DNA of 64,000 bases from Candidatus Aphodosoma sp. (GCA_045658305.1 JAZOUT010000087.1:1046-65045), one strand, 5' to 3'. Positions 8,899-44,164 are shown, counted from the first letter of the stretch. Translations and numbers: made by a program. The notes: a model not told the origin generated them from the sequence alone.

Positions 8899-8949
8899 TT
8901 AATGTGAGTTCGATATATTTTTTTATTGCACACGGATGACACGGATACC
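8899..8949 (+). repeat. Right copy of the direct repeat flanking array A
   Basis: See 8649..8702. It contains a tandem 9-mer, cacggatga cacggatac. Confidence 0.5.
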
Positions 8950-8962
8950 AGTTGAAATAAAT

Positions 8963-9001
8963 AAAAAAGGCTGAGTCAGATAATTCTTCTCAGCCTTTTT
9001 A
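8963..9001. terminator. Bidirectional Rho-independent terminator downstream of 9019..19575
   Basis: Stem ggctgag (8969-8975) pairs with ctcagcc (8989-8995). An A-run precedes it and a T-run follows. Confidence 0.8.
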
Positions 9002-9018
9002 TTTTATGTTATAGTTGA

Positions 9019-19575: not shown

Positions 19576-19623
19576 AGATATATAGATTTATTTGTTAATA
19601 AATAAACAAAACAATTCACCTTG

Positions 19624-19631
19624 CAAATTTA
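19624..19631 (-). promoter_or_regulatory. -7 promoter motif TAAATTTG for 9019..19575
   Basis: The rc of caaattta matches TAnnTTTG, 49 nt upstream of the ATG at 19575. Confidence 0.55.
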
Positions 19632-19661
19632 ATAAAAATACTCGAAAATTACAAATATCAA

Positions 19662-19696
19662 CAAAAAGAGGTTAACTATCTATAAGCTAACCTCTT
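19662..19696 (-). terminator. Rho-independent terminator of ileS
   Basis: Stem agaggtta pairs with taacctct. A T-run follows on the minus strand (plus-strand aaaaa at 19663-19667). Confidence 0.7.
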
Positions 19697-19718
19697 AAAA
19701 TACCACAAGTAATATTTA

Positions 19719-22700
19719 TTAGACTTTTTTCACTGATACTTTTACGATATACTCCTCAAAATCGAGTTCTGTAGCCTCTGCAATTGCATCAACCAACTTG
19801 ATTTCGTTAGCAAGCACTTGACCACCAATATAGTCAGTGTAATTAACTACTGCATCATTGATAGCATCGAGGCGTTCGATTTCAACCACAATCTTATCGG
19901 TGATTTCGTAACCATTCGACTTACGGATGTTTTGGATACGGTTAACCAATTCACGAGCAATACCCTCTTGACGAAGTTCTTCTGTTACAGTAACATCAAG
20001 TGCAATAGTAAGTGTACCTTCGTTAGCAACCAACCAACCTGGCATATCTTCAGTAGCGATTTCTACATCGGCAAGTTCTACTACAACTGCGCCCGAAGCT
20101 AATGGCAATTCAACCGAGCCATTACGTTCGATTGTAGAGATGTCAGCTTGATCCCAAGCAGAGATAACAGCAGCAATCTCTTTCATTTGTTTACCATATT
20201 TTTTACCTAACGTTTTGAAGTTAGGTTTAATACGTTTCACAAGCGAAATAGACGAATCATCAGCACCTACAATTTCAAGTTCCTTCACATTCACCTCAGT
20301 CTTAATCAGTTCAGCGATATATGACAACTGCTCGCGTGTCTTATCATCTGCAGCAGGGATAACTGCTTTTTGAAGTGGTTGACGCACTTTTTTCTCTGCT
20401 TTACGACGCAATGCAAGAATCATAGACGATGATGCCTGAGCAAGTTGCATACACTCTTCGAGGTTTTTGTCGATGAGCGAATCGTCGCATACAGGGAATT
20501 TAGCCAAGTGAACTGATTCTGCAGTCTCTTTGCCTGTAGCGGCATTCAAGTCAAGATACAATTGGTCAGCAAAGAATGGTGCGATAGGAGCCATAAGTTT
20601 TGCTACAGTAGCAAGACAAGTATAAAGAGTTTGATAAGCAGAGATTTTATCTGTATTGTACTCGCCACCCCAATAGCGTTTGCGGTTGAGACGTACATAC
20701 CAGTTCGAAAGGTTTTCACCTACGAAGTCTTGAATTGCACGCCCTGCACGAGTTGGCTCGTAGTTTTCGAAGTGCTCTGTGCACTCTTTAACCAACGTAT
20801 TCAAAAGAGAAAGAATCCAACGGTCGATTTCAGGACGTTCTGCTACTGGCACATCAGCCTCTTTGTATTCGAAGCCATCCACGTTAGCGTAGAGAGCGAA
20901 GAATGAGTAAGTATTGTAGAGTGTGCCAAAGAATTTACGGCGCACCTCTTCTACACCATCAACGTCGAACTTGAGGTTATCCCAAGGCGATGCGTTTGTC
21001 ATCATATACCAACGCAATGGGTCAGAACCGTATTTCTCGATTGTAGAGAATGGGTCAACAGCATTGCCAAGGCGTTTCGACATCTTGTTACCATTCTTAT
21101 CAAGCACAAGACCATTAGAGATAACATTCTTGAATGCTACTGAATTAAATACCATTGTGCCGATTGCATGAAGAGTAAAGAACCAACCACGAGTTTGATC
21201 GACGCCCTCAGAGATGAAGTCGGCTGGGTATACTGATTTAGAGTCGAATGCTTCTTTATTTTCAAATGGGTAGTGGATTTGAGCGTATGGCATAGCACCA
21301 GAGTCGAACCAAACGTCAATCAAGTCGAGTTCGCGTTTCATTGGTTTGCCCGATTCGCTGACAAGGATAATACCATCAACGTATGGACGGTGAAGGTCGA
21401 TATTTTTAGGGTCCCAGTTCTCTTTGCTCATGTCGCCGAGACGGAAGTTTTTGTATGGGTTTTCAGTCATGAAACCTGCAGCAATAGATTTCTCGATTTC
21501 GCCCATCAACTCTTCAACAGAACCGATACATTTCTCTTCTGAACCATCTTCAGTGCGCCAGATTGGGAGCGGAGTACCCCAATAACGAGAACGTGATAAG
21601 TTCCAATCTTGCAAGTTTTCAAGCCATTTACCGAAACGACCAGTACCAGTAGATTGTGGTTTCCAGTTGATAGTTTCATTAAGAGCAATCATCTCGTCAC
21701 GTACGGCAGTTGTGCGGATAAACCAAGAGTCAAGTGGATAATAAAGCACAGGTTTGTCAGTACGCCAGCAATGAGGATAGTTGTGGACATGTTTTTCGAT
21801 GCGGAATACTAAATTTTGTTGTTTCAACATCATACAAATAGCCACATCAAGAGTTTCATCCTGGTCAGTGAGAGCTGGGTCGTAAGCATTTTTCACGAAA
21901 CGACCAGCAAATTCATTATATTTTTCTACATCAACTTGTACTTTAACAAAATCCGCATCAAGATCTTCGAGCAAGAAGAATTTACCTGTCATATCCACCA
22001 TCGGACGAGTTTCGCCCTTAGCAGTAGTCATAGTCAAGCCAGGAACACCTGCTTTTTTAGCCACGAATGCGTCATCCGCACCAAATGTTGGCGCAATGTG
22101 TACAATACCAGTACCATCTTCAGTTGTTACATAGTCACCTTGAATTACTCGGAATGCACCTTCTCCTGGATTTACCCAAGGAATAAGTTGTTCGTATTCA
22201 GAATCAACCAAATCAACACCCATACACTCGCCCACTACGCGATAAGGCACAAGTTTGTCGCCTGGTTTATAGTCTTCCATAGCTACTTCAGCAGCTTTAG
22301 GATTGAACAACGAAGCAAACAAAGGTTTAGCCACGATATATGTAGCAGGGATGCCAGTATATGGATTAAAGCTTTCTACTGCGAGATATTCAATTTTAGG
22401 ACCAACGCAAAGGGCAGTATTTGAAGGCAAAGTCCAAGGAGTAGTAGTCCAAGCCAAGAAATATACATCACCTTTGAGGTTGTTGAAACCATTTACTTTT
22501 TTAGCTTTGAATTGAGCAGTACAAGTTGTATCTTTTACATCACGATAGCAACCTGGTTGGTTCAATTCGTGAGTAGAAAGACCTGTACCAGCAGCTGGCG
22601 AATATGGTTGGATAGTATAACCTTTGTACAACAAGCCTTTGTTATACAACTGTTTGAGCAACCACCAAAGTGTTTCAATATATTTATTATCGTAAGTGAT

Positions 22701-23147
22701 ATATGGGTCATTCATATCTACCCAATAACCCATTTTATGAGTAAGATCTTCCCACTCACGAGTATATTTCATAACGTCAGCACGACAAGCAGCATTATAT
22801 TCGTCAACCGAAATCTTCTTACCAATATCTTCTTTAGTGATACCAAGGCGTTTTTCCACACCAAGTTCAACAGGCAAACCGTGAGTATCCCAACCTGCTT
22901 TACGTTTCACTTGGAAACCTTGCATTGTTTTATAACGACAGAAAGTATCTTTAATTGTACGCGCCATAACGTGATGAATACCAGGCATACCATTAGCCGA
23001 AGGTGGTCCTTCATAAAACACAAACGAAGGATAACCCTCACGTTCAGCAACACTCTTGTGGAACAAATCTTTTGCGTCCCACTCCTCTAACATTCTCTTG
23101 TTCACATCGGACAAATTTAGTCCGCCATACTCTTTGAATTTTTTCAT
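19719..23147 (-). CDS. ileS: Isoleucine--tRNA ligase (type 2, long form, 1,142 aa)
   Basis: PSANGMPGIHHVMARTIKD (HIGH-class motif), KMSKRLGN (KMSKS), a WCISRQ-like NLSRSRYWGTPLPIW, and length typical of Bacteroidetes IleRS. Confidence 0.96.
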   Translation of the reverse strand: MKKFKEYGGLNLSDVNKRMLEEWDAKDLFHKSVAEREGYPSFVFYEGPPSANGMPGIHHVMARTIKDTFCRYKTMQGFQVKRKAGWDTHGLPVELGVEKRLGITKEDIGKKISVDEYNAACRADVMKYTREWEDLTHKMGYWVDMNDPYITYDNKYIETLWWLLKQLYNKGLLYKGYTIQPYSPAAGTGLSTHELNQPGCYRDVKDTTCTAQFKAKKVNGFNNLKGDVYFLAWTTTPWTLPSNTALCVGPKIEYLAVESFNPYTGIPATYIVAKPLFASLFNPKAAEVAMEDYKPGDKLVPYRVVGECMGVDLVDSEYEQLIPWVNPGEGAFRVIQGDYVTTEDGTGIVHIAPTFGADDAFVAKKAGVPGLTMTTAKGETRPMVDMTGKFFLLEDLDADFVKVQVDVEKYNEFAGRFVKNAYDPALTDQDETLDVAICMMLKQQNLVFRIEKHVHNYPHCWRTDKPVLYYPLDSWFIRTTAVRDEMIALNETINWKPQSTGTGRFGKWLENLQDWNLSRSRYWGTPLPIWRTEDGSEEKCIGSVEELMGEIEKSIAAGFMTENPYKNFRLGDMSKENWDPKNIDLHRPYVDGIILVSESGKPMKRELDLIDVWFDSGAMPYAQIHYPFENKEAFDSKSVYPADFISEGVDQTRGWFFTLHAIGTMVFNSVAFKNVISNGLVLDKNGNKMSKRLGNAVDPFSTIEKYGSDPLRWYMMTNASPWDNLKFDVDGVEEVRRKFFGTLYNTYSFFALYANVDGFEYKEADVPVAERPEIDRWILSLLNTLVKECTEHFENYEPTRAGRAIQDFVGENLSNWYVRLNRKRYWGGEYNTDKISAYQTLYTCLATVAKLMAPIAPFFADQLYLDLNAATGKETAESVHLAKFPVCDDSLIDKNLEECMQLAQASSSMILALRRKAEKKVRQPLQKAVIPAADDKTREQLSYIAELIKTEVNVKELEIVGADDSSISLVKRIKPNFKTLGKKYGKQMKEIAAVISAWDQADISTIERNGSVELPLASGAVVVELADVEIATEDMPGWLVANEGTLTIALDVTVTEELRQEGIARELVNRIQNIRKSNGYEITDKIVVEIERLDAINDAVVNYTDYIGGQVLANEIKLVDAIAEATELDFEEYIVKVSVKKV

Positions 23148-23241
23148 ATCTTATCAGTAATAAGCGCAAGTAGTAAATCACAAGACTTACTCGCTATGCT
23201 CGTTTTATTTTAATCAAAATACAATAATCCCAAATAAAGCG

Positions 23242-23249
23242 CAAAGGTA
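23242..23249 (-). promoter_or_regulatory. -7 promoter motif TACCTTTG upstream of ileS
   Basis: The rc of caaaggta matches TAnnTTTG, about 95 nt upstream of the ATG at 23147. Confidence 0.5.
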
Positions 23250-23273
23250 CAAAAAAAAATTAAAACTTCAAAC

Positions 23274-23301
23274 AAAAAGAGACGCAAAATATTGCGTCTC
23301 T
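23274..23301 (-). terminator. Rho-independent terminator of the acyl-CoA ligase gene (TAGAGRYGCAA-family hairpin)
   Basis: Stem agagacgcaa (23278-87) pairs with ttgcgtctct (23292-301), loop aata, with a T-run on the minus strand. Confidence 0.8.
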
Positions 23302-23326
23302 ACATATTATATAATACAAAACTACC

Positions 23327-25228
23327 TTATTTCAATGCATCAAGGTTTTGTTGGTTTTGAGATTGTTTACCTTCTGCGGTGTACATATAATCGATACGCT
23401 CAGCATAGGCTTTCTCAATTTTACCACGTACCATCTTCATTGTGCTGTTGATCATTTGGTTTTGTTCAGTAAATGGCTCTGCCAATACAGCAAAAGCACT
23501 AGGAAGCCAACGTTCTGGGAACATACCTTCAAATTCACCACCTTTCTTATATTTAGCCAATTCTTCTTCAAGTTTCTTAACTGTTGCTTTGCGACCTTCT
23601 TCAGAATCAAGAGTAAGATTGAGATAAGAAAGTTTACGTTTAAGAGCTTCACGATTAGGAACAATCAAAGCAGTTGTGAAAGGTGATTGGTTATTATAGA
23701 GCATCACTTGATCAATATATTTAGATTTTTCAACCAATGCTTCTTCGATACCTTCTGGGCTATATTTTTCGCCATCGCTTGAGATAAGGAGAGATTTGAA
23801 ACGACCTTTCACATAGAGAAGACCCTCTTTAGTCATATAACCAAGGTCGCCAGTATAGAGATAACCATCACGAACAGTTTCGGCAGTGGCTTCAGGGTTT
23901 TTCCAATAGCCTTTCATGACGTTTTCGCCTTTGACTACGATTTCGCCCATCTCGCCAAGAGGAAGTTCTTTGCCATCACTATCGCAGATTTTGAGTTCGA
24001 TAGGCTTAACGAGTTTACCACTTGAGCCAAAGCGGTAGAGGTCAGGACCATTAGACGAGAGAACAGGGGTAGCCTCAGAGAGACCGTAGCCTTGGAACAT
24101 AGGGATGCCGACACCGACATAGAACTTTTGGAGGTCTTTATCGAGAAGGGCACCGCCACCGATGAAGAAACGGAGTTCGCCACCGAAATTGTCGCGGACC
24201 TTAGAGAATATAAGTTTGTCGAAAAGAGCTACAAGGGGATAGAGCAAGAGACGAAGACCTTTGCTGTCGAGATTGCTGTCGCCAAAATAGATTTGACGGA
24301 GACGAAGTCCGAAGTTGAATAGGCTGACAGTGAAATTGCCTTTGGCGCGGATTGCTTGCTCAATGTTCTTTTTGAACGTTTTGGCAAGAGCAGGCACAGA
24401 GAGAATGAAGTGAGGGCGCACCTCTTTAATATTAAGAGGTATGTTTTTGAGCGTTTCGAGCGGAGTGCGACCTACTTGCACGGTAGCCACAGATGCACCC
24501 TTAGACATCATAATATAGAAGCCTACGACGTGAGCGAAACACTGGTCGAGAGGCAGAATGATGAGCGTGCGCCAAGTTTCGTCGATATTGACAAGCGTGC
24601 AAGCTTGCTCGACGTTGGCTGTGTAGTTGCGGTGAGTGAGCACCACACCTTTAGGGTCGGCAGTTGTGCCTGAAGTATAGGTGATTGTGGCAATATCGTC
24701 GTTTTGGAGCGATTTGCCCACGGCGAGGAATTCCTCAAGAGAGTGAGTGTTCATAAACTCATCGCCGAGAGTCATCACGCGGCTGTAAGAGACTTCGCGC
24801 TCTTCGTAGTCTTGAATATCGTCGAGAACGATAATGTATTTGACATTAGGGAGTTGGTCTTTGATAGCGCGGACTTTTTTGAGTTGAGTGCGCGACACCA
24901 TAATATATTTCACGTCACCATGTACGAGACGGAAAAGGAGGTCGTTGGACTCTTCGAGCTTGATAGACAAAGGCACATTCATCGCACCAGCATAGAACAT
25001 AGCCAACTCGCCAATAATCCATGAGTTGCGACCCTCGCTAAGAAGCGCCATGCTGTCGCCTTTTTTCACACCAATAGCCTGAAGACCAGCACCAAGACGA
25101 TACACTAAAGTTTTTACTTCGGCATAAGTAGTAGGCTCGAATTTGTTAGATGTTTTTTCGAGCAAAAATGTATTGTTAGGGTATAAACGTACCGATTCCT
25201 CGAATAAGTCGACAAGTGTTTTTTTCAT
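23327..25228 (-). CDS. Long-chain-fatty-acid--CoA ligase / AMP-dependent synthetase (633 aa)
   Basis: AMP-binding signature ITYTSGTTADPKGVVLTHRN, plus later GYGLSE and YTGDLGY...GRFKSL motifs of the ANL superfamily. Confidence 0.9.
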   Translation of the reverse strand: MKKTLVDLFEESVRLYPNNTFLLEKTSNKFEPTTYAEVKTLVYRLGAGLQAIGVKKGDSMALLSEGRNSWIIGELAMFYAGAMNVPLSIKLEESNDLLFRLVHGDVKYIMVSRTQLKKVRAIKDQLPNVKYIIVLDDIQDYEEREVSYSRVMTLGDEFMNTHSLEEFLAVGKSLQNDDIATITYTSGTTADPKGVVLTHRNYTANVEQACTLVNIDETWRTLIILPLDQCFAHVVGFYIMMSKGASVATVQVGRTPLETLKNIPLNIKEVRPHFILSVPALAKTFKKNIEQAIRAKGNFTVSLFNFGLRLRQIYFGDSNLDSKGLRLLLYPLVALFDKLIFSKVRDNFGGELRFFIGGGALLDKDLQKFYVGVGIPMFQGYGLSEATPVLSSNGPDLYRFGSSGKLVKPIELKICDSDGKELPLGEMGEIVVKGENVMKGYWKNPEATAETVRDGYLYTGDLGYMTKEGLLYVKGRFKSLLISSDGEKYSPEGIEEALVEKSKYIDQVMLYNNQSPFTTALIVPNREALKRKLSYLNLTLDSEEGRKATVKKLEEELAKYKKGGEFEGMFPERWLPSAFAVLAEPFTEQNQMINSTMKMVRGKIEKAYAERIDYMYTAEGKQSQNQQNLDALK

Positions 25229-25379: not shown

Positions 25380-25456
25380 GCAGTATGATTTATAGTATAT
25401 TTATCCTATATTTATGGTATATTTATCCTATATTTATAGTATATTTATGGTATGTT
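25380..25456 (+). repeat. 11-bp tandem array B (6 units plus 1 degenerate)
   Basis: (gcagtatgatt) tatagtatatt tatcctatatt tatggtatatt tatcctatatt tatagtatatt tatggtatgtt. Confidence 0.9.
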
Positions 25457-25562: not shown

Positions 25563-26045
25563 GTGAAGAAGTATGTTTTTCAAATAGTTAGTCTTTGTTT
25601 AGCAATGTTCATTGCGTATATTGGTGGTGGATTGAATATCTATCACTATTGTTGCGATGCTTGCGAAAAACATGGACACGATATATTTCAGACTATATCG
25701 TGCGAAGAGGTGCATGCAGAGCATCATTGCACAGAGGATGATTGCCACCATGAGCATCATAATCACACTCGTATTATAGAAAATAGAGATGATTTGTGCA
25801 CTCATTTGATGGCAAATTCGGCTCACTGCGATGTGCATCATGTGGAAGCACCTTATTTTTCACAATCTAATCCTTTGAAAGTGAACTTTGTGTCACCATT
25901 GATTGCGATACACCCTATATCAATGCACAATGCACAATGCATAATGCACAATATTGAGTGCAAGATACAAAGTGAGGCTATTCCTTTAGTCCAAATTCTC
26001 ACAGGACGAGCCATAATTGTGCGAAAATCTGCGTATTTGATTTAG
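25563..26045 (+). CDS. Small N-terminally membrane-anchored His/Cys-rich protein (160 aa), putative metal-binding. Reminiscent of the Bacteroidota HYC_CC_PP-type small proteins found next to TonB-dependent receptors (from memory, unverified).
   Basis: GTG start, one TM helix (VFQIVSLCLAMFIAYIGGG), then IYHYCCDACEKHGHD...HAEHHCTEDDCHHEHHNH. First gene of a same-strand cluster with a TBDR and an HMA protein. Start codon uncertain. Confidence 0.7.
   Translation: MKKYVFQIVSLCLAMFIAYIGGGLNIYHYCCDACEKHGHDIFQTISCEEVHAEHHCTEDDCHHEHHNHTRIIENRDDLCTHLMANSAHCDVHHVEAPYFSQSNPLKVNFVSPLIAIHPISMHNAQCIMHNIECKIQSEAIPLVQILTGRAIIVRKSAYLI
25921..25952 (+). repeat. Heptamer array (AATGCAC x4.5) in frame inside the His/Cys-rich protein CDS
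   Basis: c aatgcac aatgcac aatgcat aatgcac aat, translated as SMHNAQCIMHN. Confidence 0.9.
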
Positions 26046-26055
26046 CCAATAATAT

Positions 26056-26100
26056 AATTAGTTGAATTGGACTAATTAGTCAAATTGGATAGATTAGATA
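26056..26100 (+). repeat. 9-bp tandem array (5 units) in the spacer between the His/Cys gene and the TBDR
   Basis: aattagttg aattggact aattagtca aattggata gattagata. Confidence 0.7.
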
Positions 26101-26149
26101 TTAAAAATAAATCACATAATAATTAATTTTCACCCCTACAAAATATATT

Positions 26150-28540
26150 ATGAAAAAAATAATAATGATTGTATTGTGCGTGATGCATTGTGCATTGTGC
26201 ATTAACTTGAAAGCTCAAGAGTCGACTGGAGGCACACTTTCGGGTAGCGTGATTGATGAGAACGGCGAACCAGTAATTGGAGCTGAGATATTTTGGTTAA
26301 ACTCGACTATCGGTGCGGTTACGGATATTGATGGCAATTTTACTATTCCAATGACTGTGGATAGCCACCACTTGATTTTTAATTATTTGTCGTACAAAGC
26401 TGATACAGTAGATATTACTAAGGCTTCGATGCCTCTTGTTGTGCAGATGAGCGAAGATACAAAAGAGTTGCAAGAAGTAACAGTTGCAGCACGTGGAGCA
26501 AGTACGATTGCGAGCCGCGTGAGCGCATTGCAAACTACTAAAATCACTGGTGCAGAGTTGTGTAAAGCGGCTTGTTGCAACTTGTCGGAGTCGTTCGAAA
26601 CTAATGCCTCAGTGGACGTAGCGTATGCTGATGCTGCTACTGGCGCAAAAACAATTAAATTACTCGGTTTGTCAGGCACATACGTTCAGTTGTTGACCGA
26701 AAACACTCCAGGAGTGCGTGGTTTGGCTCAAAACTATGGTATGGAATATATCCCTGGTGCTTGGATGGAGAGCATCCAGGTATCGAAAGGTACTTCGTCT
26801 GTTATAAATGGTTATGAGGCCACTACAGGTCAAATCAATGTTGAATACTTGAAACCTCAAACCCAAGACCCTATTGCGTTGAATGGTATGGTGAGCACAT
26901 CGCTTCGCGCTGAGTTGAACGCTACTGGCGGTTGGGATATCAACGAAAAATGGAGCACTGGCGTGTTGGCTCACTACAAAAATGAGAGTATGGAACACGA
27001 CACAAATGGCGACGGATTTATGGATTTGCCAAAAGGTCAACAAGCCAATTTGTTGAATCGTTGGTATATGAAAGATGGTGCATATACAGGTCAATACCTC
27101 GTGCGAGGCTTGTATGACGAGCGCAATGGCGGTCAGACAATGAAATATATTGACGAAAATGGCATTGCTGACCCATATAAAATTGGCATTCGCACATGGC
27201 GCATGGATGCGTTTATGAAACAGGGCTATGTGTTTGATGAAGCAAAAGGTACAAGTATCGGGATTATTGCAAGTGGTTCGTACCACAATCAACACAACGT
27301 ATATGGTCATCGCGTGTATGATGGCGTACAAGGCAACTTCTATTTGAATGCTATGTTCCAAACATATTTTGATGAAACTGACAAACACAAAATCACTGCG
27401 GGTTTGAGCCTCAATTATGATAACTATAAAGAAGGGATGATATCAGACAAGGCGGAGTTTATACTATCATACGATAATAATCCGATGGGAGATTCACCAG
27501 ATGCACCTGCTGGATTACCATTAGGTGATTACACTAAACTATTAGATATGACTCGCGATGAATGGACTCCGGGTGTATTTGCAGAATACTCATTGAAAGT
27601 AGATGAAAAATTGTCGCTTTTGGCAGGTGTTCGTGGCGATTATAGCACACAGTATGGATTCTTTGTAACACCACGTTTCAACGTGCGCTACTCGCCATGG
27701 GAATGGTGGAACTTGCGCGGTTCGGTGGGTATGGGCTATCGCTCGCCTAACTTGTTGAGCGACCACGCTTCAGTGTTACCTTCGTCGAGAACAATAGCAA
27801 TTGAAAGCGATGTATTAAAACAAGAACGTGCAGTAAATGCAGGTGCAAGCACTACGTTCTATATTCCTATTGCGGGTCGCGAATTGCAAATTACGGCAGA
27901 CTACTACTACACTCATTTCTTGGAATGTATGGTTGTAGATATGGACTCTGACCCATATACTGTTATATTCTCTAACCTCACAGAGGAGGGCGTAGAAGGA
28001 GGCAAAAAACCTCGCTCGTATGCAGGCAACTTCCAAGTAGAGGCATCGATGGAGGTGTTGAAAGGTTGGACTATGACACTCGCCTACCGTATGTCGGACG
28101 TAAAAAGTACAATCAATGGTGAATTACGCGAAAAACCTCTTACAAACCGCTATAAAGCACTCATCACAACTTCGTATATGACACCACTAAAACACTGGCA
28201 ATTCGACGTTACAGCACAATTTAATGGTGGTGGTCGTATGCCTGATAATTTTTATAAAGGCAATGAATCACTTCGTCCATCATGGACTATCGACCGTGGC
28301 AATGGTCAATATGATTTTCCTTGGCATGCGCAGTTGATGGCTCAAGTAACTCGTTATTTCCGCACATGGAGTATCTATGTCGGAGGCGAGAATATCACTA
28401 ACTTTACACAAGATACACCTATTATTGGCGCCGGTGACCCATACGGACAAAACTTTGATGCATCAATGGCTTGGGGACCTATCCATGGATGGAAAGTGTA
28501 TGCAGGCTTCCGTTGGGCTTTGAACCGTAAGGAAAAATAA
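26150..28540 (+). CDS. TonB-dependent receptor with N-terminal carboxypeptidase-regulatory-like domain (796 aa)
   Basis: Signal peptide; GSVIDENGEPVIGAEIFW...TDIDGNFTI (CarbopepD_reg-like); plug-like ESFETNASVDVAYADAATGAKTIKLLGL; long barrel ending in an aromatic-rich strand (YAGFRWAL). Confidence 0.88.
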   Translation: MKKIIMIVLCVMHCALCINLKAQESTGGTLSGSVIDENGEPVIGAEIFWLNSTIGAVTDIDGNFTIPMTVDSHHLIFNYLSYKADTVDITKASMPLVVQMSEDTKELQEVTVAARGASTIASRVSALQTTKITGAELCKAACCNLSESFETNASVDVAYADAATGAKTIKLLGLSGTYVQLLTENTPGVRGLAQNYGMEYIPGAWMESIQVSKGTSSVINGYEATTGQINVEYLKPQTQDPIALNGMVSTSLRAELNATGGWDINEKWSTGVLAHYKNESMEHDTNGDGFMDLPKGQQANLLNRWYMKDGAYTGQYLVRGLYDERNGGQTMKYIDENGIADPYKIGIRTWRMDAFMKQGYVFDEAKGTSIGIIASGSYHNQHNVYGHRVYDGVQGNFYLNAMFQTYFDETDKHKITAGLSLNYDNYKEGMISDKAEFILSYDNNPMGDSPDAPAGLPLGDYTKLLDMTRDEWTPGVFAEYSLKVDEKLSLLAGVRGDYSTQYGFFVTPRFNVRYSPWEWWNLRGSVGMGYRSPNLLSDHASVLPSSRTIAIESDVLKQERAVNAGASTTFYIPIAGRELQITADYYYTHFLECMVVDMDSDPYTVIFSNLTEEGVEGGKKPRSYAGNFQVEASMEVLKGWTMTLAYRMSDVKSTINGELREKPLTNRYKALITTSYMTPLKHWQFDVTAQFNGGGRMPDNFYKGNESLRPSWTIDRGNGQYDFPWHAQLMAQVTRYFRTWSIYVGGENITNFTQDTPIIGAGDPYGQNFDASMAWGPIHGWKVYAGFRWALNRKEK
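26165..26202 (+). repeat. Heptamer array (ATTGTGC family, opposite orientation) inside the TBDR signal-peptide coding region
   Basis: gattgt attgtgc gtgatgc attgtgc attgtgc att, translated as IVLCVMHCALCIN. Confidence 0.8.
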
Positions 28541-28643: not shown

Positions 28644-29012
28644 ATGAAAAAAGTATTTCTTACACTTGCTCTTGCAGCAGGTATTTCGGTAGCCGTAATG
28701 GCAGAAAAACAGACAGTGCGCCTTTATGTTCCTGAAATGGAATGTGACAATTGTAAAGGTAAAGTAGAAAATGTATTGGCTTATGAAAAAGGAGTAAAAA
28801 AACTTAATTTCGATGTAGCTCACCGCATCGTAACAATCGTATTCGAAGACAAACGCACTAACGTAGAAAAACTTCAAGCAGCTTTAATGAAATATATTAA
28901 ATATGAATCAAAAGAGTTGAAAGAAGGCGACCACGTAGAGTGCAACCACGAACACCATCATGGACACGACCACGGTCATGGACATAATCACGACCACGGA
29001 CATAAACACTAA
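28644..29012 (+). CDS. Secreted heavy-metal-associated (HMA) domain protein with His-rich C-terminal tail (122 aa)
   Basis: Signal peptide MKKVFLTLALAAGISVAVMA; HMA CxxC motif MECDNCKGKVENVL; tail HEHHHGHDHGHGHNHDHGHKH. Confidence 0.88.
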   Translation: MKKVFLTLALAAGISVAVMAEKQTVRLYVPEMECDNCKGKVENVLAYEKGVKKLNFDVAHRIVTIVFEDKRTNVEKLQAALMKYIKYESKELKEGDHVECNHEHHHGHDHGHGHNHDHGHKH

Positions 29013-29084: not shown

Positions 29085-32000
29085 TTATTGTACGAACACT
29101 TTAGCTACACCTACAGCAGTTCTTACCAAATAAACACCTGCTGGCAAACCAACTACATTCATACGATTTTCACCTCGCATTACCAACTGTCCGTTTATAT
29201 TGAAAATGTACATATCTCCTTCTGCCACCAAATCATCACCTTCGAACCAAACTACCATCTGCGAATTATCTACAATATTTTCCACATTATCTGCCTCTGG
29301 CTCTACTACCTCTTCAAAAGTCTCAAACCACAAACGTATATCGTTCGCTTCTTCCATTACCCATGGAGAATCAATATTTTCACCAAATACAAAACCATGC
29401 TCTACTAACCATTCTGTAGTCATCAATGAGCGTGCCATTGTAGCACCTTCTGTAGTTGTATCATTCAACTCTATTGTCGTATCAATTGCCGCCAAATCTG
29501 ACACTACATAATTATTTTTCAAGCATTTTTCAGGATCATTATAAATTTTTCCTCCTGAATCTAAATTATCCCAATCATATTCAAAACTATCTCCATTTGA
29601 ATAACCGACTATACGATGCGCATACAATTCTACATCAATAGGCACTTTTATATCTTCGATAGCCACAATATTGTTAGCCACCAAAGCATATACCGAATCA
29701 GATAATGTACTACCCATAGCACCTATTACACCCCCTACTTTTACAACATTTGCATTATCACTCAATTCCATAGTGCCTTCTACATAGCAATTCAATACAT
29801 ACGAACGGTCGCTTGTTCCGACAATACCACCAGCAGTTCCTTTAGTATAAATATCTGCTGTAACATGGCAATTATTAATCACATCATCAGCACCAGACAC
29901 AGATACAATACCACCGGCTTCTATACCTGCCTCAATATTTCCATCAAAAGCACAAGCAGAAATCTTAGTCGATGTTGCTATTTTACCTGCAATACCGCCG
30001 ACACTTTCTGCTATTGGAGCATAAATATTAGCATACGACATAGAACAACCCTCTATATTCGCATACAATGAAACATCCCCAACAATACCACCCAACACAC
30101 CATTAAAACCATCCAATCCAACAATATACGGACATACGACATGCACATTACTGATTCTACAACCATAACCCGCACCTGACTCAGCAAAGGTACCCACCAC
30201 CTCATTAGCCAAAATACCTATACCTATAGCATCAGTAAACATCGAAGCCGACAATACAGAATTACGCAAAACAATATTTTCCACTACTGCCGAATCACGC
30301 AAAGAACGGAACAATCCACAATCATCCAACACAAGATTTCTAATCTCAAAATTACCACCATCCAATTTACCCGTAAACTCACCAACAACACCACCAAATA
30401 CAGCATTCATAAAGTCAATATCATTAACTACCTTATAATAAGCATCAAGATCATTATCTATTTTAGTAAAATCATAGGCACATGCTATTTCATAAGGATT
30501 TTCAGCTGTACCCTCTCCCTTCATATCTGCAACATTCAAAGGCAACTCTGTATATTGAAGCATAATTGTCCTTCCGTCACTGTAAGGGCACATCAATAAT
30601 GGTTTTATATGCGTATTCAACAAACAAATCGAACCCAAATCCCCTCCTTTTGTAGCATCAGAACCAAGCTCAAGCAACATTTCACCATTTGTACTACAAA
30701 TAGCCAAAACCTTATCTTTCGCATCCGAATTTTTACGAGTTTTAGTCAACAGCACCATATACTCTCTCTCATCATCGCTATTAAACAAATGAGGATTCAA
30801 TGCCTCTGTCGTAATATTAAACATCGCATTCTCAACTCCCTTACCCAAATTCAACACATCATAACGATCAAACGAACCATCTTTATCAAACCAAGCTATT
30901 CTATGTTGAGCCGAACCATCTTTCGTTCCCTCACCTTGCAACAAAGCAACAGCATACTGATACGAAGTCCCCTTTCCATAACGGTCAATTGAAGACGACA
31001 ATACCACCTCATCTTTTGTCACTACAGGCAACTCCGCCACCACATCGCATGCCGGAAAATCCACAAACGTAAACACTCCATACTCTCCCTCTTCTCTCGC
31101 AAACATCCATTGGTCTGAGTGCCCAACAATCGAACCCATCATCCTACTACTTATCACATTATTCGCAATATCTTTCAATTTATTACCCTCCACATCATAC
31201 AATTTATACGACGTAACATAACTATCCGAACTTGTTTGATAATTCTTTTCAGTAATAATATAGGCAGGTGCATCACCTCCATTATAATTAACAAACACAT
31301 CACCCGACATATTCAAACTACCCAAATGTGGAAACGAATACAAATATTCAAGACTCAATTCCACAGGAATCTTAGTCTCATACTTAAGCCCAAATTTATC
31401 ATCATAATACTTAACAACCAAACTATTCCCCTCATTAACAATCATATCCTGATTCACATCTTCTGGAATTGTGAAATAAGGCTTTTCATATTGTACCAAC
31501 ACATAATTAGCCTTACCCCCATTGTTCACCATCAAAATTGGCGAAGGCTCCTCGCCCGACGACGAAATATATTTATAATCCACCGTAAACGTATGTTTCT
31601 TCTCTGCCTTATAATCCGAAAAATAAGTCGCCTTTGTATACACATCATAATGATACAACAAACTATTATCATCGCCCCTCTCTTCTCTTTGAAACACCAT
31701 TGTGTACGCCTCGCTATACGAATTCACCGACATATTCTCTGCCATATGAAACGTCCCCTCTATATCATACAACCTCGTAGCCTCACCATCTGTCAACGAA
31801 TATATATAATGCAAATACTTACCCTTATAATCCAACGTATTAGCATACACAAACACCATCACCTCATAATTATTATCCTGATTGAAGAACTTTTTAGTCA
31901 AATAAGGCTGCACATTCACCATTCTCACACCAGTCGCACCCTCCACATTCAAACTATCCGCAATCGCACTAACCAACCTATTCTCCCCATCATAAATCTT

Positions 32001-32195
32001 CACTTCCATATAGGTATAATACCCATTCTCCTCCTCAAACGAAGTAGTATACACCCAGTCCAAACCATCAGGACCATTCAAAAAACCATAGCCCATAGCC
32101 GGACCAATCGTTATCGTTTGCAACTCAGCAGACACACCGCCCACCACAGCAAACATTGCCACAACAGCAACAAATAAACGTAGAAATCTTTTCAT
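29085..32195 (-). CDS. T9SS-secreted protein (1,036 aa) with GLUG-motif beta-helix region and T9SS C-terminal domain
   Basis: Signal peptide MKRFLRLFVAVVAMFAVVGGVSA. Repeated GG[IV][IV]G motifs (VGGIAGKI, AGGIVSV, AGGIVGT, VGGVIGAM), preceded by GTAENPYEI...DIDF...F.GKLDGGNFEIRNL, as in GLUG-domain proteins. C-terminus AGVYLVRTAVGVAKVFVQ. Confidence 0.85.
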   Translation of the reverse strand: MKRFLRLFVAVVAMFAVVGGVSAELQTITIGPAMGYGFLNGPDGLDWVYTTSFEEENGYYTYMEVKIYDGENRLVSAIADSLNVEGATGVRMVNVQPYLTKKFFNQDNNYEVMVFVYANTLDYKGKYLHYIYSLTDGEATRLYDIEGTFHMAENMSVNSYSEAYTMVFQREERGDDNSLLYHYDVYTKATYFSDYKAEKKHTFTVDYKYISSSGEEPSPILMVNNGGKANYVLVQYEKPYFTIPEDVNQDMIVNEGNSLVVKYYDDKFGLKYETKIPVELSLEYLYSFPHLGSLNMSGDVFVNYNGGDAPAYIITEKNYQTSSDSYVTSYKLYDVEGNKLKDIANNVISSRMMGSIVGHSDQWMFAREEGEYGVFTFVDFPACDVVAELPVVTKDEVVLSSSIDRYGKGTSYQYAVALLQGEGTKDGSAQHRIAWFDKDGSFDRYDVLNLGKGVENAMFNITTEALNPHLFNSDDEREYMVLLTKTRKNSDAKDKVLAICSTNGEMLLELGSDATKGGDLGSICLLNTHIKPLLMCPYSDGRTIMLQYTELPLNVADMKGEGTAENPYEIACAYDFTKIDNDLDAYYKVVNDIDFMNAVFGGVVGEFTGKLDGGNFEIRNLVLDDCGLFRSLRDSAVVENIVLRNSVLSASMFTDAIGIGILANEVVGTFAESGAGYGCRISNVHVVCPYIVGLDGFNGVLGGIVGDVSLYANIEGCSMSYANIYAPIAESVGGIAGKIATSTKISACAFDGNIEAGIEAGGIVSVSGADDVINNCHVTADIYTKGTAGGIVGTSDRSYVLNCYVEGTMELSDNANVVKVGGVIGAMGSTLSDSVYALVANNIVAIEDIKVPIDVELYAHRIVGYSNGDSFEYDWDNLDSGGKIYNDPEKCLKNNYVVSDLAAIDTTIELNDTTTEGATMARSLMTTEWLVEHGFVFGENIDSPWVMEEANDIRLWFETFEEVVEPEADNVENIVDNSQMVVWFEGDDLVAEGDMYIFNINGQLVMRGENRMNVVGLPAGVYLVRTAVGVAKVFVQ

Positions 32196-32230
32196 AGTAT
32201 ATAGTTTTAATTACAATATTTCCTAAACTA

Positions 32231-32238
32231 CAAAGTTA
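32231..32238 (-). promoter_or_regulatory. -7 promoter motif TAACTTTG for 29085..32195
   Basis: The rc of caaagtta, 36 nt upstream of the ATG at 32195. Confidence 0.6.
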
Positions 32239-32404
32239 CAAAAAACTTTTGAATCTCGCAACCCACCCACCAACCCTTAGACTAAAAAATAATAGTTCCG
32301 CAGCACGCCCTATCCGCCCAATCCCCCGACCAAACAACAGTAGAGACGTAGCCCGCTACGTCTCCAAAAAGCAAAACCTCCAATCAGCCGCAAGGCTGAC
32401 CCCA

Positions 32405-32444
32405 CCAGACAAGCGCAGCGTTCCAGAATCTCTGGAATATCCGC
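32405..32444 (-). repeat. 40-nt conserved hairpin module (copy 1). About 37/40 identical to 62387..62426 when reverse-complemented.
   Basis: The rc reads gcggatattccagagattctggaacgctgcgcttgtctgg, against gcggatagtccagatattctggaacgcttcgcttgtctgg at 62387. It contains the hairpin ttccaga-N3-tctggaa. Confidence 0.8.
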
Positions 32445-32469
32445 CCCAAAACACCCCAAAGCCCACCAT

Positions 32470-32518
32470 CTTCCCTACTCCCTGCACCCTATTCCCTGCT
32501 CCTTATCAACTCCCATAC
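32470..32518 (-). repeat. Heptamer array (purine-rich on the minus/sense strand) adjoining array C
   Basis: Plus strand: cttccct actccct gcaccct attccct gctcctt atcaact cccatac. The rc gives GGGAnnn-type units. Confidence 0.65.
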
Positions 32519-32530
32519 CTCACCCATACT

Positions 32531-32598
32531 ACAACATACAATAAATATACTATAAATATAGGATAAATATATCATAAATATACTATAAACATACCATA
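32531..32598 (-). repeat. 11-bp tandem array C (6 units, minus orientation)
   Basis: The rc reads tatggtatgtt tatagtatatt tatgatatatt tatcctatatt tatagtatatt tattgtatgtt gt. Confidence 0.9.
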
Positions 32599-32662
32599 AC
32601 CCTATCCTCTCCCTCCCCTCACCCACCCCAATCACAAAAATCCACACACACCAACACACAAC

Positions 32663-32695
32663 AAAAAAATAGAGGCGCAACACATTGCGCCTCTA
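32663..32695 (-). terminator. Rho-independent terminator of 32723..38104 (TAGAGRYGCAA family)
   Basis: Stem agaggcgcaa (32671-80) pairs with ttgcgcctct (32685-94), with a T-run on the minus strand. Confidence 0.8.
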
Positions 32696-32722
32696 TTACC
32701 ACTATATAATTCCTATCAGAAA

Positions 32723-35700
32723 TTATTTCACAAATACTTTATAAGCCACACCATTCACACGGATAATAGCAATATCAGTAAGACCATTGATAACAGTAGT
32801 ATTAGTATTAGAAACACCACCATATACGCGAAGACCGTTCACTGTATAAACTTCAATCATCACGCCAGCCTCAGTTTCTACATATACCGAACCATTGTTA
32901 GCATAAATATTAACAACAAGCTCACCATTTTCAATGTCTACTTTATTTTCAGTTTCACCTACTTTAATAGTTGCACCCTTAACAATCAATGTTTGACCTT
33001 GAGCGATAGAGTTCCAGTCGAAACGTGCTTTAGTCACATCGATAGTAGCTGCATCTTCAAATGTAGCTGCTGGAAGATTTTCAGCTTTCACATTGAACAA
33101 TTCACCAGCGAAGTTGTAATAGTCTTCTGTTAATTTAGGAGATACAGATACGTATGTTGTACCCTCTTCTTCGTATGATTCTACATCAAATGCAGTTTCT
33201 GCATCCCAATACATATAAGCATTAGTTGAAGTAGTACCTGTAAGATAATCCATAGATTGTTCTGCATAGTAAGAAGCTGTTGTATCAACAACCAACAATT
33301 TACCAGCGTATGCCATACGATTAGCAAGCACATCAAGAAGCGAAGCCTCTACTGCTTCTTCTACGAAGTCACTTGCAACACAAGCACCAACGAAGTCTGC
33401 ATTAGATTCTGAGATATCCCAACCTTCTGCATCAACACCTGTAACTTTAGACACATAAGTCAACACAGGAGCGCCATAAACTTCACCTGTAGGCAACCAT
33501 GTTTCATCATCAACTAAACACTTAAAGTCAACAGTAGCCAATAAGCCAGCAGGAAGTTTTTTACCTACTTCAATATTAAGACCTTCAATTGGTTCTGGGA
33601 AACCATTAGGATCATCAGCTGGAGCTTGAAGAACGATAACACCTGTACCATCATTGAGATAGTAGTTGTTCATTGGACCCATGTGACCAAGAGCTGTTAC
33701 TTTATCAACAACTGTTGGTTGTGAGTTGAGACGTGCAAGAAGTGATTGAGCTGAATAATCTGCATAACGAGATTTTTCCCACATACCTTGATCATAGATA
33801 GCTTTGATATTAGCGAAATCAATAGCAAAGATATCGTGAGAAATATAGTTGAGTTGTTTATTTTCTTTATAAATACCAACTGTACCTACGATAGAAACTG
33901 GAGTCATAGTACCCCAAGCAGCATCAAATTTATATTGGTTGTAGATAGAAGCTTCTTCTTCTTTATCATTAGCCACAGTAGCATTACGATTTGAAGATGT
34001 AAATGCAAGAGGTTCAGTAAATCTAACTTCATTAAGAACTACATATTCGCTAAGTTCTGCAGTTGCCAAATCAGCCACTGAAATAGCACGTGGAGCAATA
34101 GCTTCACCAGCTTTAGCAGCAGGAAGAGTTGCATCTACCATTTCTGGAAGACCATTGTAATCTTTATATTTACCTTTTACGCCTACCAAGCGGTCGCCAT
34201 TCACGTAACCTGCATTTTGATAGTCAAAGTCATAAATCAACAATGAACCTGAGTTATCGCGTACATAGATGTTTTCACCATTTTGATAAGTAACAACCAC
34301 TTCGTTAAGGATTACAACCTCATTTTCTGTATCAGCAGCAGCCAAGAAGCCTGCAATATTTTCAACAAATTTGAAGTCAGCTTCGATATTAGCCAAATCA
34401 GAAACATAAAGAGAAGGAAGATCCTCAAGAGCATAACCAATATCAAAATTACCTTTAACTGTTACCTCTTGGTTAGCGAATGCACTAAAGTTAATACCGC
34501 TGAGACGAAGTTTATTTTCACCAACTTTGATACAAGCAGAATATTCATAAACGGTTTCACCATCCCACTCATATGAAGTAGTATCAATAACCACAGTACC
34601 TGTAATAGCATAGTTTTTAGCTTGATATTCTACAGCTCCAGCACCGAAGAAACCTGTAATATCACTAACTTCTGTATAAGTAATTTCATTACCTGAATTA
34701 AGTTTTTTGATGAGAGTACCAAGTTGAACTTCTACAATATTAGGAAGAACCATCTCTCCATCAACCTCAATAGAATCCACATCTGCAGGATAATCAATAT
34801 CACCAATATGGTAGTCATAACGATACGCATTGATAGAACGACCACGAGCATAACCTTCTTTACCATAAGTAGAAGAAAGATCTTCATATGGATAATAACC
34901 ACCTTTACAGAAATAAATAGAGTCACCAGCTTGGAAATTAACACCTTCTGCTACTTCCATAGCCCAAACTGTAAGACCTGTGATTGAGCCATCAGCATTT
35001 GTTTGTTGCACATTAAGAGCAGTACCACCTTGCGAAGAGAATACACTATTAACAAGAACTGGAGATGTAAAACCAGAAACTGTATATTGTTCACCAGTCA
35101 CAGGAGCCCATTTAGCCATGTAGTCTTTCAACTCGTGGAACATGAGCACGCGATTAGAACCTGTATTATAGAAATCATAAGATTCTACTGTGAATGCTTG
35201 ACCTTGTTCTGCACTTGTGTGATATACAATACCTGACAACTTAGCATCTGCAGGAACAACTGCACCTCTAACAGCGATAGTTTTACCATCTGTTGTAGCC
35301 ATTGTATAAATACCTTCTGATATACGAGTTGTTTTAGCTACTGCAATATCAATAAGCTCACCTTCAAAGTTAGCAATATTATTCACAAGTGAATCAATTG
35401 TAATAGTCTCTTTAGAGAAACGACCACGTCCCGATACTTCAAGTGCAGTAGGAACGATACGAGCCATACAATCTGCACTTGATGGATAATATGTACCTTC
35501 CACGTTAGTTACTTTTTGACTGAGAGCAATAGAGTCAACTCCATCAAGAAGAATAGCACCTGTACCATCTTGAATAAGAAGACCACGATCTGTCAAATAA
35601 GTTGTAGTTGCTGAACCTGTAAATTTAACAGGTTTAGACGCTGTATTATTGCGGATACTAAGAATAGTTGCACCTTCTTCTTGTGAAACAGCATTTTCAA

Positions 35701-38104: not shown

Positions 38105-38285
38105 AAAATGCGTGTTTTTAAGTTAATGAATAATGTTAATAATTACAATTTTGTTCTATATCTTTATTATAGTAGATAAGCTCAGTTCCATTTATTATTC
38201 GTATTTGTATAAACACAACCAAACTACACCAATATATATTTTAGTATCCTTTTTTACTATGGCACAATACCCCAAAATAAGACGA

Positions 38286-38293
38286 CAAAGGTA
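38286..38293 (-). promoter_or_regulatory. Candidate -7 motif TACCTTTG for 32723..38104
   Basis: The rc of caaaggta, about 185 nt upstream of the ATG at 38104. Confidence 0.35.
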
Positions 38294-38340
38294 AGACTTT
38301 TTTTTCAAATAACAAAATTTTTTACAAAAAAAACAAATAA

Positions 38341-38375
38341 AAAATAGAGATGCAAGATATTGCACCTCTATTTTT
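38341..38375 (-). terminator. Rho-independent terminator of 38394..42005 (TAGAGRYGCAA family)
   Basis: atagagatgcaagatattgcacctctattttt. On the minus strand agaggtgcaa pairs with ttgcatctct with one G-U pair, then a T-run. Confidence 0.75.
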
Positions 38376-38393
38376 ACCTTCAAACTATAAATA

Positions 38394-42005: not shown

Positions 42006-42052
42006 AATTATTAAATATTTAGTTAGTAAAAAATTGATTACCAATTAGCACA

Positions 42053-42231: not shown

Positions 42232-42299
42232 ACAACATACTATAAACATACTATAAATATAGAATAAATATACTATAAATATAGGATAAACATACTATA
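42232..42299 (-). repeat. 11-bp tandem array D (6 units, minus orientation)
   Basis: The rc reads tatagtatgtt tatcctatatt tatagtatatt tattctatatt tatagtatgtt tatagtatgtt gt. Confidence 0.9.
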
Positions 42300-43358: not shown

Positions 43359-43380
43359 ATTAAATCAATAGTTTTCATAT
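43341..43380 (-). repeat. Perfect 20-bp tandem duplication spanning the lplA start codon and the mtnN stop codon
   Basis: taaatcaatagttttcatat occurs twice (43341-60 and 43361-80). Confidence 0.95.
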
Positions 43381-44088: not shown

Positions 44089-44096
44089 ATATATCC

Positions 44097-44154
44097 TCAA
44101 AAAAGACAGAATAACATAATAACAAAAATTTATGTTTTTATGTTATTTTGTCTT
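44097..44154 (-). terminator. Rho-independent terminator of the decarboxylase gene
   Basis: Long stem aagacagaataacata (44103-18) pairs with tatgttattttgtctt (44139-54), followed on the minus strand by a T-run. Confidence 0.7.
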
Positions 44155-44164
44155 CTTATATTAA

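Follow-up and report, generated by a model that had tools for sequence, protein, structure and literature searches.

Among the long simple-sequence repeats of prokaryotes, those with heptanucleotide units are the most common, and most of them lie between genes, according to the work of Mrazek, Guo and Shah (2007) as it is related in PMC4679880 and PMC4692102. As described there, such repeats are arranged head to tail, exceed the lengths expected by chance and occur sporadically across lineages; slippage has been proposed as their origin, and genes contain few repeats with a unit length that three does not divide. Here we describe arrays with these properties in a 64,000-nucleotide stretch of bacterial DNA (JAZOUT010000087.1:1046-65045; hereafter, the window). 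In contrast to the repeats covered in those accounts, a large share of the arrays is found inside intact genes, including polA and mtnN, and the units are AT-rich with an AATT core. Also, allelic steps of 21 bp, units in which a stop codon has been corrected, and the turnover of units are directly visible, which sets the arrays further apart from the repeats in those accounts. With a probability of roughly 0.7, we regard the arrays as heptanucleotide simple-sequence repeats of a lineage with unusually active 7-bp tandem duplication, and not as inserted elements.

Geobacter metallireducens has 49 elements of four heptamers (GGACCGG) each, located within and between genes (PMC2700814). These elements are GC-rich, have a fixed number of four copies, and are interpreted as regulatory RNA elements (PMC2700814), whereas the arrays in the window vary in copy number, have units that form a family, and exist as allele series. 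Direct repeats of TAACTGA are found in Beggiatoaceae, Cyanobacteria and five Bacteroidetes, and some are located in the forward orientation immediately upstream of start codons (PMC4679880). They are almost wholly intergenic and have a single unit, and stop content restricts where arrays can be placed in genes (PMC4679880). The author of an earlier note on this DNA was aware of no such description in Bacteroidota, but the TAACTGA arrays (PMC4679880) are a precedent there, as are the intragenic heptamers of G. metallireducens (PMC2700814) elsewhere. One array in the window (57462-57496; TAACTAG/TAACTAA) is also forward and just before a start codon; it resembles the TAACTGA arrays in placement, but its unit is one or two mismatches away from theirs. 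The coding arrays of the window use other units.

The short tandemly repeated repetitive (STRR) sequences of cyanobacteria are dispersed tandem heptamers of a few unit families, mainly intergenic, in heterocystous hosts. The arrays in the window do not belong to them, because the host is a member of Bacteroidales and the units differ from those of STRR sequences. One unit found in relatives, CAACAGT, might be the same as STRR3. We know of no in-frame allele series reported for STRR sequences. Rickettsia palindromic elements are 100-150 bp in length, palindromic and conserved in sequence. Like these elements, the arrays in genes add an extra peptide in frame to conserved proteins without destroying the protein; unlike them, they are tandem arrays of 25-70 bp with variable unit and copy number and without palindromic ends. 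Literature searches with the exact repeat strings, and for tandem repeats in Muribaculaceae, found no report of these units or of this lineage. The kind of repeat is therefore already known; what is new is its density in core genes, the 21-bp allele series, the stop-corrected arrays, and the replacement of units at fixed sites.

Heptamer arrays in the window

The window has a G+C content of 38%, and an Rfam scan of it detected only a tRNA. The nearest polA genes in the genome collection, with 62-65% identity, are from uncultured Bacteroidales and from Candidatus Colousia (Paludibacteraceae at NCBI). Close relatives (75-99% identity) are known solely as metagenome proteins, two of which are named Muribaculaceae and Paludibacteraceae. 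Judging by these sequence matches, the host is an uncultured gut-type Bacteroidales lineage, which we place at the level of the order only.

A scan of the window at lag 7 reveals 11 arrays that match at 12 or more of 14 positions. Twenty Markov shuffles average about 0.25 such arrays, so that the window has about 40 times as many as expected by chance. There are eight perfect period-7 runs (0 expected) and 13 perfect heptamer arrays of at least two copies (0.35 expected). Periods 6, 8 and 10 yield counts of only 0-7, with no excess comparable to that at period 7. The arrays are head-to-tail and longer than chance allows, as are heptanucleotide long simple-sequence repeats generally. Coding DNA of the window contains 0.14 arrays per kb, and its intergenic DNA 0.63.

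Four genes contain the following arrays and associated repeats, which were identified by using Tandem Repeats Finder (TRF), the lag-7 scan, alignment, Pfam and inspection of codons, as given for each. ORF denotes open reading frame, and aa, amino acids.

25919-25952, plus strand: (CACAATG) x4.6 in a His/Cys-rich ORF (25563-26045), encoding SMHNAQCIMHN (TRF, scan, codons).
26165-26205, plus strand: degenerate (ATTGTGC) x4.4 in the hydrophobic core of the signal peptide of a TonB-dependent receptor gene (26150-28540), encoding LCVMHCALCI (TRF, Pfam, codons).
43670-43708, minus strand: array that reads CACAATG x5.4 on the sense strand of mtnN (43375-44085), encoding NNVQCIMHNAQ (TRF, codons).
55553-55693, minus strand: polA linker between the 5' nuclease and 3'-5' exonuclease, AATTAGG/AATTGAG arrays with a 21-bp super-period, encoding GIRNEEL/RIENGEL (TRF, lag-7 scan, alignment, codons).
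55310-55382, minus strand: polA loop insert, (CACAATG) x4.6 at 55348-55382 and a 9-bp repeat x4.6 at 55310-55350, encoding MHNVQCTMHNSDLLDGSDLSDLSE (TRF, alignment, codons).
54840-54899, minus strand: 15-bp repeat x3.7 within a 33-aa polA insert (SLTPEGLTPVSLPPVGLTP...), located where the 3'-5' exonuclease domain joins the polymerase domain (TRF, alignment, codons).

The earlier note had reported in-frame CATTGTG/CACAATG arrays in four coding sequences. TRF (period-7 rows at 25921-25952, 26173-26203, 43671-43708 and 55351-55382) and the lag-7 scan confirm all four, with the receptor array delimited at 26173-26205, and SMHNAQCIMHN, VMHCALCIN, NNVQCIMHNAQLN (mtnN) and MHNVQCTMHN translate in frame. 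The host ORFs have family support as well, which comes from Pfam and NCBIfam for the receptor, the nucleosidase and DNA polymerase I, and from 54 homologues for the His/Cys ORF.

Arrays in mtnN

The mtnN product matches the NCBIfam equivalog for 5'-methylthioadenosine/S-adenosylhomocysteine nucleosidase with 190 bits. An alignment of homologues reveals a single length hotspot, between the end of a helix (...LLEAAKxV) and the strand LVFGLICTGDQF. The protein comprises 226-227 aa in all distant homologues and in some close ones, but 229, 230, 233, 234, 237, 241 or 244 aa in other close relatives, and the insert is missing from all more distant orthologues, so it is specific to the lineage. A structure model built with 39 sequences (mean predicted local distance difference test [pLDDT] score, 86) places the insert at the end of the helix 121-136 and in the loop 137-144, where pLDDT is about 74 between well-modelled flanks. 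In this model, the insert would extend a surface helix and loop.

The DNA of this site was compared in six relatives. The 226-aa allele reads CTCAACT CTCAACT C and encodes CTCAACTCTCAACTC; thus, even the shortest allele contains a two-unit proto-repeat. Three lineages have 233-aa proteins with about 4.5 units each, which are AATTCTC (x4.7), GTCAACA (x4.5) or of the NSQLSTF type, so that the difference between 226- and 233-aa alleles has arisen in three lineages. The local sequence can yield the units by one or two point changes, as from CTCAACT to CTCAATT. The expectation of the earlier note that three units add 7 aa and keep the frame is borne out by natural alleles: the 237-aa protein P0005 equals the 230-aa protein P0018 plus exactly three AATGCAC units.

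A 276-aa ORF (43393-44223, plus strand) overlaps mtnN in antisense. Arrays that are free of stops on both strands help to hold spurious ORFs of this kind open and can thereby mislead gene callers.

Arrays in polA

The polA gene of the window encodes a full-length DNA polymerase I with all three domains (Pfam and NCBIfam). It contains four heptamer arrays, one 9-mer array and one 15-mer array; the total of four heptamer arrays includes those of AATTGAG and AATTAGG, which lie within polA and not in intergenic DNA. Alignment with 14 Bacteroidales orthologues reveals three extra segments, namely the linker, a 25-aa insert and a 33-aa insert, and the heptamer segments are absent in all more distant orthologues. 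The 25-aa insert comprises MHNVQCTMHN, from the heptamer array, followed by SDLLDGSDLSDLSE, from the 9-bp array. On the Klenow fragment, it falls in the turn of a beta-hairpin between LVGLSFA and AAYIPV, just past the Exo I motif. The 33-aa insert maps to chain residues 193-201, at the junction of the 3'-5' exonuclease and the polymerase. The linker segment corresponds to the protease-sensitive linker between the 5' nuclease and Klenow parts.

In close relatives with flanks more than 90% identical, the loop site contains IKSTVNSQQSTDDS, MQITDYRLQITDTD, NSQLSTLNSQL or short forms. The DNA is (CACAATG)n in the window and (TCAACAG)x4 in the relatives' loci L088 and L089, with identical flanks, and the right-hand anchor of the array co-varies with the unit (TCACAATTG versus AGTCAATTG).

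The linker units, AATTAGG and AATTGAG, would form TAG or TGA in one of the three phases. However, every phase-0 unit is AATGAGG or AATGGAG, in which a T-to-G change removes the stop. A G at unit position 4 is found in all five phase-0 units but in only 1 of 10 units in the other phases (Fisher p=0.002). This correction in phase 0 gives rise to the 21-bp super-period, which is also reported by TRF. Where the window reads AAG AAA TTA GGA, L089 reads AAA TAA TTA GGA, with an in-frame TAA in the first unit, and gene calling divides its polA into two genes (284 and 665 aa). A stop at this position is the expected failure mode of a filter against stops within arrays, and such stops can split real genes.

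The polA genes of both L088 (1-2161) and L089 (408-3287) are interrupted, the former by a TAG just upstream of the linker and the latter by the TAA in the first linker heptamer, which gives separate 5' nuclease and Klenow-like ORFs. The interruption could be a real split of DNA polymerase I or a metagenome error. The load of arrays is uneven in the window: about 36 kb of very large ORFs (3518, 1142, 633, 1036, 1793 and 1216 aa) at 9019-25228 and 29085-42044 have no heptamer arrays, whereas polA alone has its four.

Arrays in the His/Cys protein and the TonB-dependent receptor

The His/Cys ORF has no Pfam or NCBIfam match, but it has 54 homologues with the motifs NIYHYCCDAC, SCEEVH, HCDVHH and GRAIIVRKSAYLI. 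In nearly all of these, down to about 41% identity, the array encodes (T/S)IHNSQFIIHN from CACAATT units and is fixed in position and length, whereas the clade of the window has SMHNAQCTMHN from CACAATG units. This is a concerted change of unit from CACAATT (HNSQFII) to CACAATG (HNAQCTM) at constant length. Some homologues have further MHNAQCT-type arrays at two other sites, and some have them in place of the His-rich region.

The receptor has the Plug, barrel and carboxypeptidase-regulatory domains of TonB-dependent receptors. Its array occupies codons 6-18, within the signal peptide, and thus is located in the 5' coding region of a surface-protein gene, as is typical of contingency loci. Four alleles were compared, from the window and from L210, L211 and L212, whose relatedness (about 80-98% identity) was measured on the adjoining His/Cys protein. 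The signal peptide contains LCVMHCALCI, LCIVHCALCI or LCIMHCALCI, always in frame, and the 23-24 residues up to the AQE motif differ in length by at most 1 aa. Because the alleles are always in frame, nothing in them points to phase variation, which was rejected for the receptor on a small sample in which 4 of 4 alleles are in frame and copy numbers show no frame-shifting differences.

The arrays in these two genes, with their conserved position and length, appear to be old residents. The earlier note had named conserved, ancestral segments as an outcome that would refute its reading; this outcome applies to two of the four genes, those of the His/Cys protein and the receptor, whereas the inserts in mtnN and polA are specific to the lineage. 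The His/Cys/Met-rich peptide in a metal-binding protein, and the hydrophobic core of a signal peptide, may have been co-opted.

The gene that directly follows these two (ORF 28644-29012) encodes a MerP/CopZ-like heavy-metal-associated protein, and an in-frame 18-bp repeat at 28947-29009 gives it a His-rich tail. The trio resembles a metal-uptake operon.

Units and stop codons

After rotation and choice of strand, 7 of 12 arrays are within one mismatch of AATTGTG, for which the chance is 3.2% per array. AATTAGG and AATTAAG are two mismatches away (chance, 25%), and a comparison of units rejects ACTAATA and TCCCTAC as members of the family. The earlier note's single superfamily of units thus covers the majority of the arrays, with AATTAGG and AATTAAG further off and the last two units outside it.

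CACAATG and CATTGTG have no stops in any phase on either strand, as the earlier note had said. In 159 kb (the window and 13 close loci) there are 83 heptamer arrays, 42 in long ORFs and 41 intergenic, where orthologous arrays are counted repeatedly and assignment to ORFs is mechanical. The relatives' loci were picked around known arrays, which biases their array density upward, although flanks are dense as well. The consensus unit is free of stops on the sense strand in 37 of the 42 coding arrays, and units with stops on both strands account for 2 of 42 coding but 11 of 41 intergenic arrays. These counts agree with the proposal that freedom from stops is a reason why arrays are tolerated in genes. 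CACAATG is not the only variant so tolerated, however: CACAATT, CTCAATT, CTCAACT and GTCAACA arrays are common in the genes of relatives, and polA has the stop-corrected AATTAGG and AATTGAG.

Distribution beyond the window

Other Bacteroidales loci have 34 arrays in 1.47 Mb, versus the 83 in 159 kb. These 34 cluster in a small number of Bacteroidaceae assemblies from animal guts (L043, L073, L055, L069, L025 and L021), and their units (AATTAGG, AATTGTC, AATTATG and GTTTAGA) are related. Because arrays also occur in some other Bacteroidales, the trait is patchy and not unique to this lineage. The nearest relatives in the genome collection, L001, L002 and L037, have no arrays at the loci scanned; at 62-65% polA identity, such relatives represent the ancestral state and are uninformative on recent history. 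Among the close relatives, L086 carries 21 arrays within 20 kb, some of them in the genes that encode an alpha-amylase, a patatin-like protein, HPPK and RecO.

Exact (CATTGTG)x3 is present in at least 120 metagenome contigs with 29-70% G+C from termite gut, rumen, soil and seawater, and so the unit recurs far outside this lineage. About half of these arrays are within stop-to-stop ORFs of at least 200 codons, although long ORFs in high-GC contigs are unreliable. The set is too mixed to inform mechanism.

Intergenic arrays and a hairpin core

By the count of the earlier note, intergenic DNA and 5' untranslated regions (UTRs) contain 12 or more additional arrays. This number is too high: five or six are robust (46284-46327, 53398-53413, 53490-53558, 56857-56888 and 57462-57496), there are a few weak TRF rows (32472, 48316 and 32086), and the AATTGAG/AATTAGG arrays (55553-55693) are inside polA. 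The robust arrays are part of the following features.

46284-46327, no strand assigned: (CAATGCA/CAATTCA) array between the yidC stop codon (46378) and tRNA-Arg(CCT) (46209-46281, minus strand).
53345-53511, plus strand: composite unit in three tandem copies of 43-50 bp, each with a 32-nucleotide hairpin core (GAACCGAAGGTC...GGCGAATAA) and two AATTGTG-type heptamers (TRF, motif search, nhmmer, fold).
53490-53558, no strand assigned: (AATTGTG/CATTGTG) x9.6, immediately 3' of the polA stop codon (53560) (TRF, scan).
56829-56888, minus strand: hairpin core (56829-56860) followed by (AATTAAG) x4.4 (56857-56888), upstream of polA.
57462-57496, plus strand: (TAACTAG/TAACTAA) x4.7 in a 5' UTR, with stops in every frame, ending 5 nucleotides before the ATG (57502) of a Fe-only hydrogenase-like gene.

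Of the array that follows polA, the window has 9.6 copies and the orthologous site in L089 has 6.4. An ACTAACT array in L085 ends 10 nucleotides before the start of greA.

A motif search with the 32-nucleotide core finds four matches in the window (0.53 expected). Three are in tandem after polA and one is inverted before it, so that polA is bracketed. The consensus is GAACCGAAGGTC...GGCGA[A/T]AA, and the heptamer unit alongside changes from copy to copy. Other copies are found in L082 (480-511), L086 (15271-15302), L089 (3335-3366) and L198 (6613-6644 and 1726-1754). The core is predicted to fold as GAACCGAAGGTC-loop-CCTTTGGCGATAAA, with an 8-bp stem and -10.7 kcal/mol on that strand; RNA folding of the whole repeat region after polA is not significant (z = -1.4). 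As a short conserved hairpin repeated in intergenic DNA, the core may be an element like the repetitive extragenic palindromic (REP) sequences and bacterial interspersed mosaic elements (BIMEs). REP sequences can be associated with a RAYT (Y1) transposase; a Y1_Tnp gene (150 aa) is located 11.5 kb from a core copy in L086, and there is none in the window.

By nhmmer, the core was found neither in other Bacteroidales nor in any coding array, and thus it is confined to this lineage. It was rejected as a general explanation of the arrays, because it accompanies a minority of the intergenic arrays, in this lineage only, and never those in genes.

Origin of the arrays

In the explanation that we favour, an array would begin as a short proto-repeat, usually one with a CAATT-type anchor, and strand slippage or unequal exchange would then expand it and renew its units at the same site. 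Intergenic DNA could retain arrays of any unit and in any number of copies. In genes, an array would be retained if its net length change is a multiple of three units (21 bp, 7 aa), if the sense strand of the unit is free of stops or a mutation has altered each third unit, which falls in the stop phase, so that the array acts as a 21-bp repeat, and if the site tolerates added residues, as interdomain linkers, hairpin turns, helix ends and the core of a signal peptide might. Cycles of contraction and re-expansion would homogenize the units, and an old array could thereby exchange its unit in concert without a change in length. The observations behind this reading are the excess at period 7, the lineage specificity, the 21-bp steps between alleles, the turnover of units at fixed sites, the avoidance or correction of stops, and the permissive locations. 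Copy number also differs between related genomes at orthologous sites, as in mtnN (by three units) and after polA. From these comparisons of alleles, we infer slippage as the molecular process; the encoded peptides would be mostly neutral passengers.

Several points weigh against this explanation. Near-identical strains (the window versus L210 and P0002) have no copy-number differences and thus give no sign of present-day hypermutability. The 83 arrays are not all independent, nor are the five corrected units of the polA linker, because a corrected array can expand in 21-bp blocks. Finally, local slippage alone predicts arbitrary units, yet a few related units recur at unrelated sites and replace one another. 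An extra ingredient is needed, which might be a sequence-dependent propensity to slip, ectopic conversion between arrays, or a unit-specific process; the foremost candidates are ectopic conversion and a propensity that depends on the CAATT(G) anchor. In a rather doubtful variant, generic slippage gives way to a genome-wide 7-bp duplication process with a sequence bias that favours a few CAATT-anchored units. Its cause could be conversion from array to array or altered processing of lagging-strand flaps, an idea that is prompted by polA itself being riddled with inserts and apparently split at the linker in relatives.

Spread by ectopic recombination or templated conversion is a tentative alternative, less probable than duplication in place. 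Existing long arrays would serve as donors in the conversion of proto-sites that have one or two units like theirs, so that a few families invade many sites without a transposase, and the process may add to slippage and not replace it. The recurrence of families at unrelated sites (7 of 12 arrays being near AATTGTG) and the supplanting of one family by another between identical flanks are consistent with this, and at 30-70 bp the arrays offer sufficient length for short-homology recombination. No donor and recipient with common array-plus-flank sequence were found, however, and local point changes such as CTCAACT to CTCAATT can also derive the units. Small mobile elements that insert in frame, in the manner of Rickettsia palindromic elements or miniature inverted-repeat elements, are much less probable, despite the occurrence of one heptamer family in several unrelated genes, the association of some intergenic arrays with the repeated hairpin core, the Y1 transposase-family gene in L086, and the in-frame position of arrays inside conserved protein genes. 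The coding arrays all lack the core, which other Bacteroidales with arrays lack too. The boundaries of the mtnN and polA loop inserts have no target-site duplications, terminal or inverted repeats, or fixed length; unit and copy number vary by lineage at one and the same site; and the shortest allele already contains a proto-repeat. The same facts, together with the identical flanks and the co-varying anchor in polA, speak against the earlier note's picture of arrays that invade genes and its analogy with Rickettsia.

The arrays might instead be selected devices, such as phase-variation switches, regulatory sites bound by protein or RNA, or useful peptide modules with His/Cys/Met ligands. The receptor array is in the signal-peptide coding region of an outer-membrane protein, a classic position for contingency repeats, as in Neisseria opa. 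The fixed position and length of the His/Cys array across about 41-98% identity, and the MHNAQCT arrays that replace the His-rich region in some members, also suggest function. Moreover, the array at 57462-57496 is 5 nucleotides before a start codon, like the TAACTGA arrays proposed as translational regulators (PMC4679880). We consider this unlikely as an account of the arrays in general, because the four receptor alleles are in frame and nearly equal in length, no regulator was identified, and polA and mtnN gain nothing obvious from inserts that vary freely in sequence and length among close relatives. Assembly or sequencing artefacts are hardly credible. The source is probably a metagenome assembly and the polA of the window is a singleton in the protein collection, but a single sequencing read exceeds the arrays (25-69 bp) in length, independent assemblies from several samples contain orthologous arrays, and the reading frames of conserved genes run through them intact.

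Implications

Repeats whose unit is not a multiple of three are usually deemed to be barred from genes or to act as frameshift switches. The window provides a natural allele series of their persistence in essential genes, with expansion by three units, correction of the stop-forming unit, restriction to sites in linkers and turns, and units that are replaced in concert. This is a concrete set of rules for the annotation of array-rich genomes, and a cheap route by which proteins can acquire insertions in loops and linkers. It also identifies an uncultured gut lineage that could be used to test what causes heptamers to proliferate. If the bias in units reflects a specific defect in repair or replication, it would be relevant to an old question, the dominance of 7-bp units among long bacterial repeats. 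If a biased duplication process is at work, it would continually supply insertions of 7 residues, and these would reshape loops, linkers and signal peptides in core proteins.

Other features of the window

The first 9 kb or so of the window (1-9018) is nearly without long ORFs. The sole ORF of more than 120 aa (4968-6185) has no Pfam match, and the stretch has no Rfam matches and a G+C content of 27-41%. Because the rest of the window is 88% coding, this stretch is unusual for a bacterial genome.

Six AT-rich arrays with a period of 11 bp (22 bp) have the unit TTTATAGTATA in 5-7 copies, in either orientation, and all are intergenic (8787-8862, 25382-25454, 32536-32599, 42234-42299, 50380-50451 and 62274-62331). 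Another is found in the relative L089 (130-194). Most are located 80-340 bp from gene starts, and several are between divergent genes. The period is near that of the DNA helix, which suggests that these arrays are curved DNA associated with promoters.

Adjacent 9-bp arrays, AACCAGTGC x3.4 and CTTGCACTA x3.9, are located at 56688-56774, in the 960-bp intergenic region between polA and the hydrogenase gene. This region also has 7-, 10- and 11-bp repeats, and the lineage thus seems prone to tandem repeats of several unit lengths.

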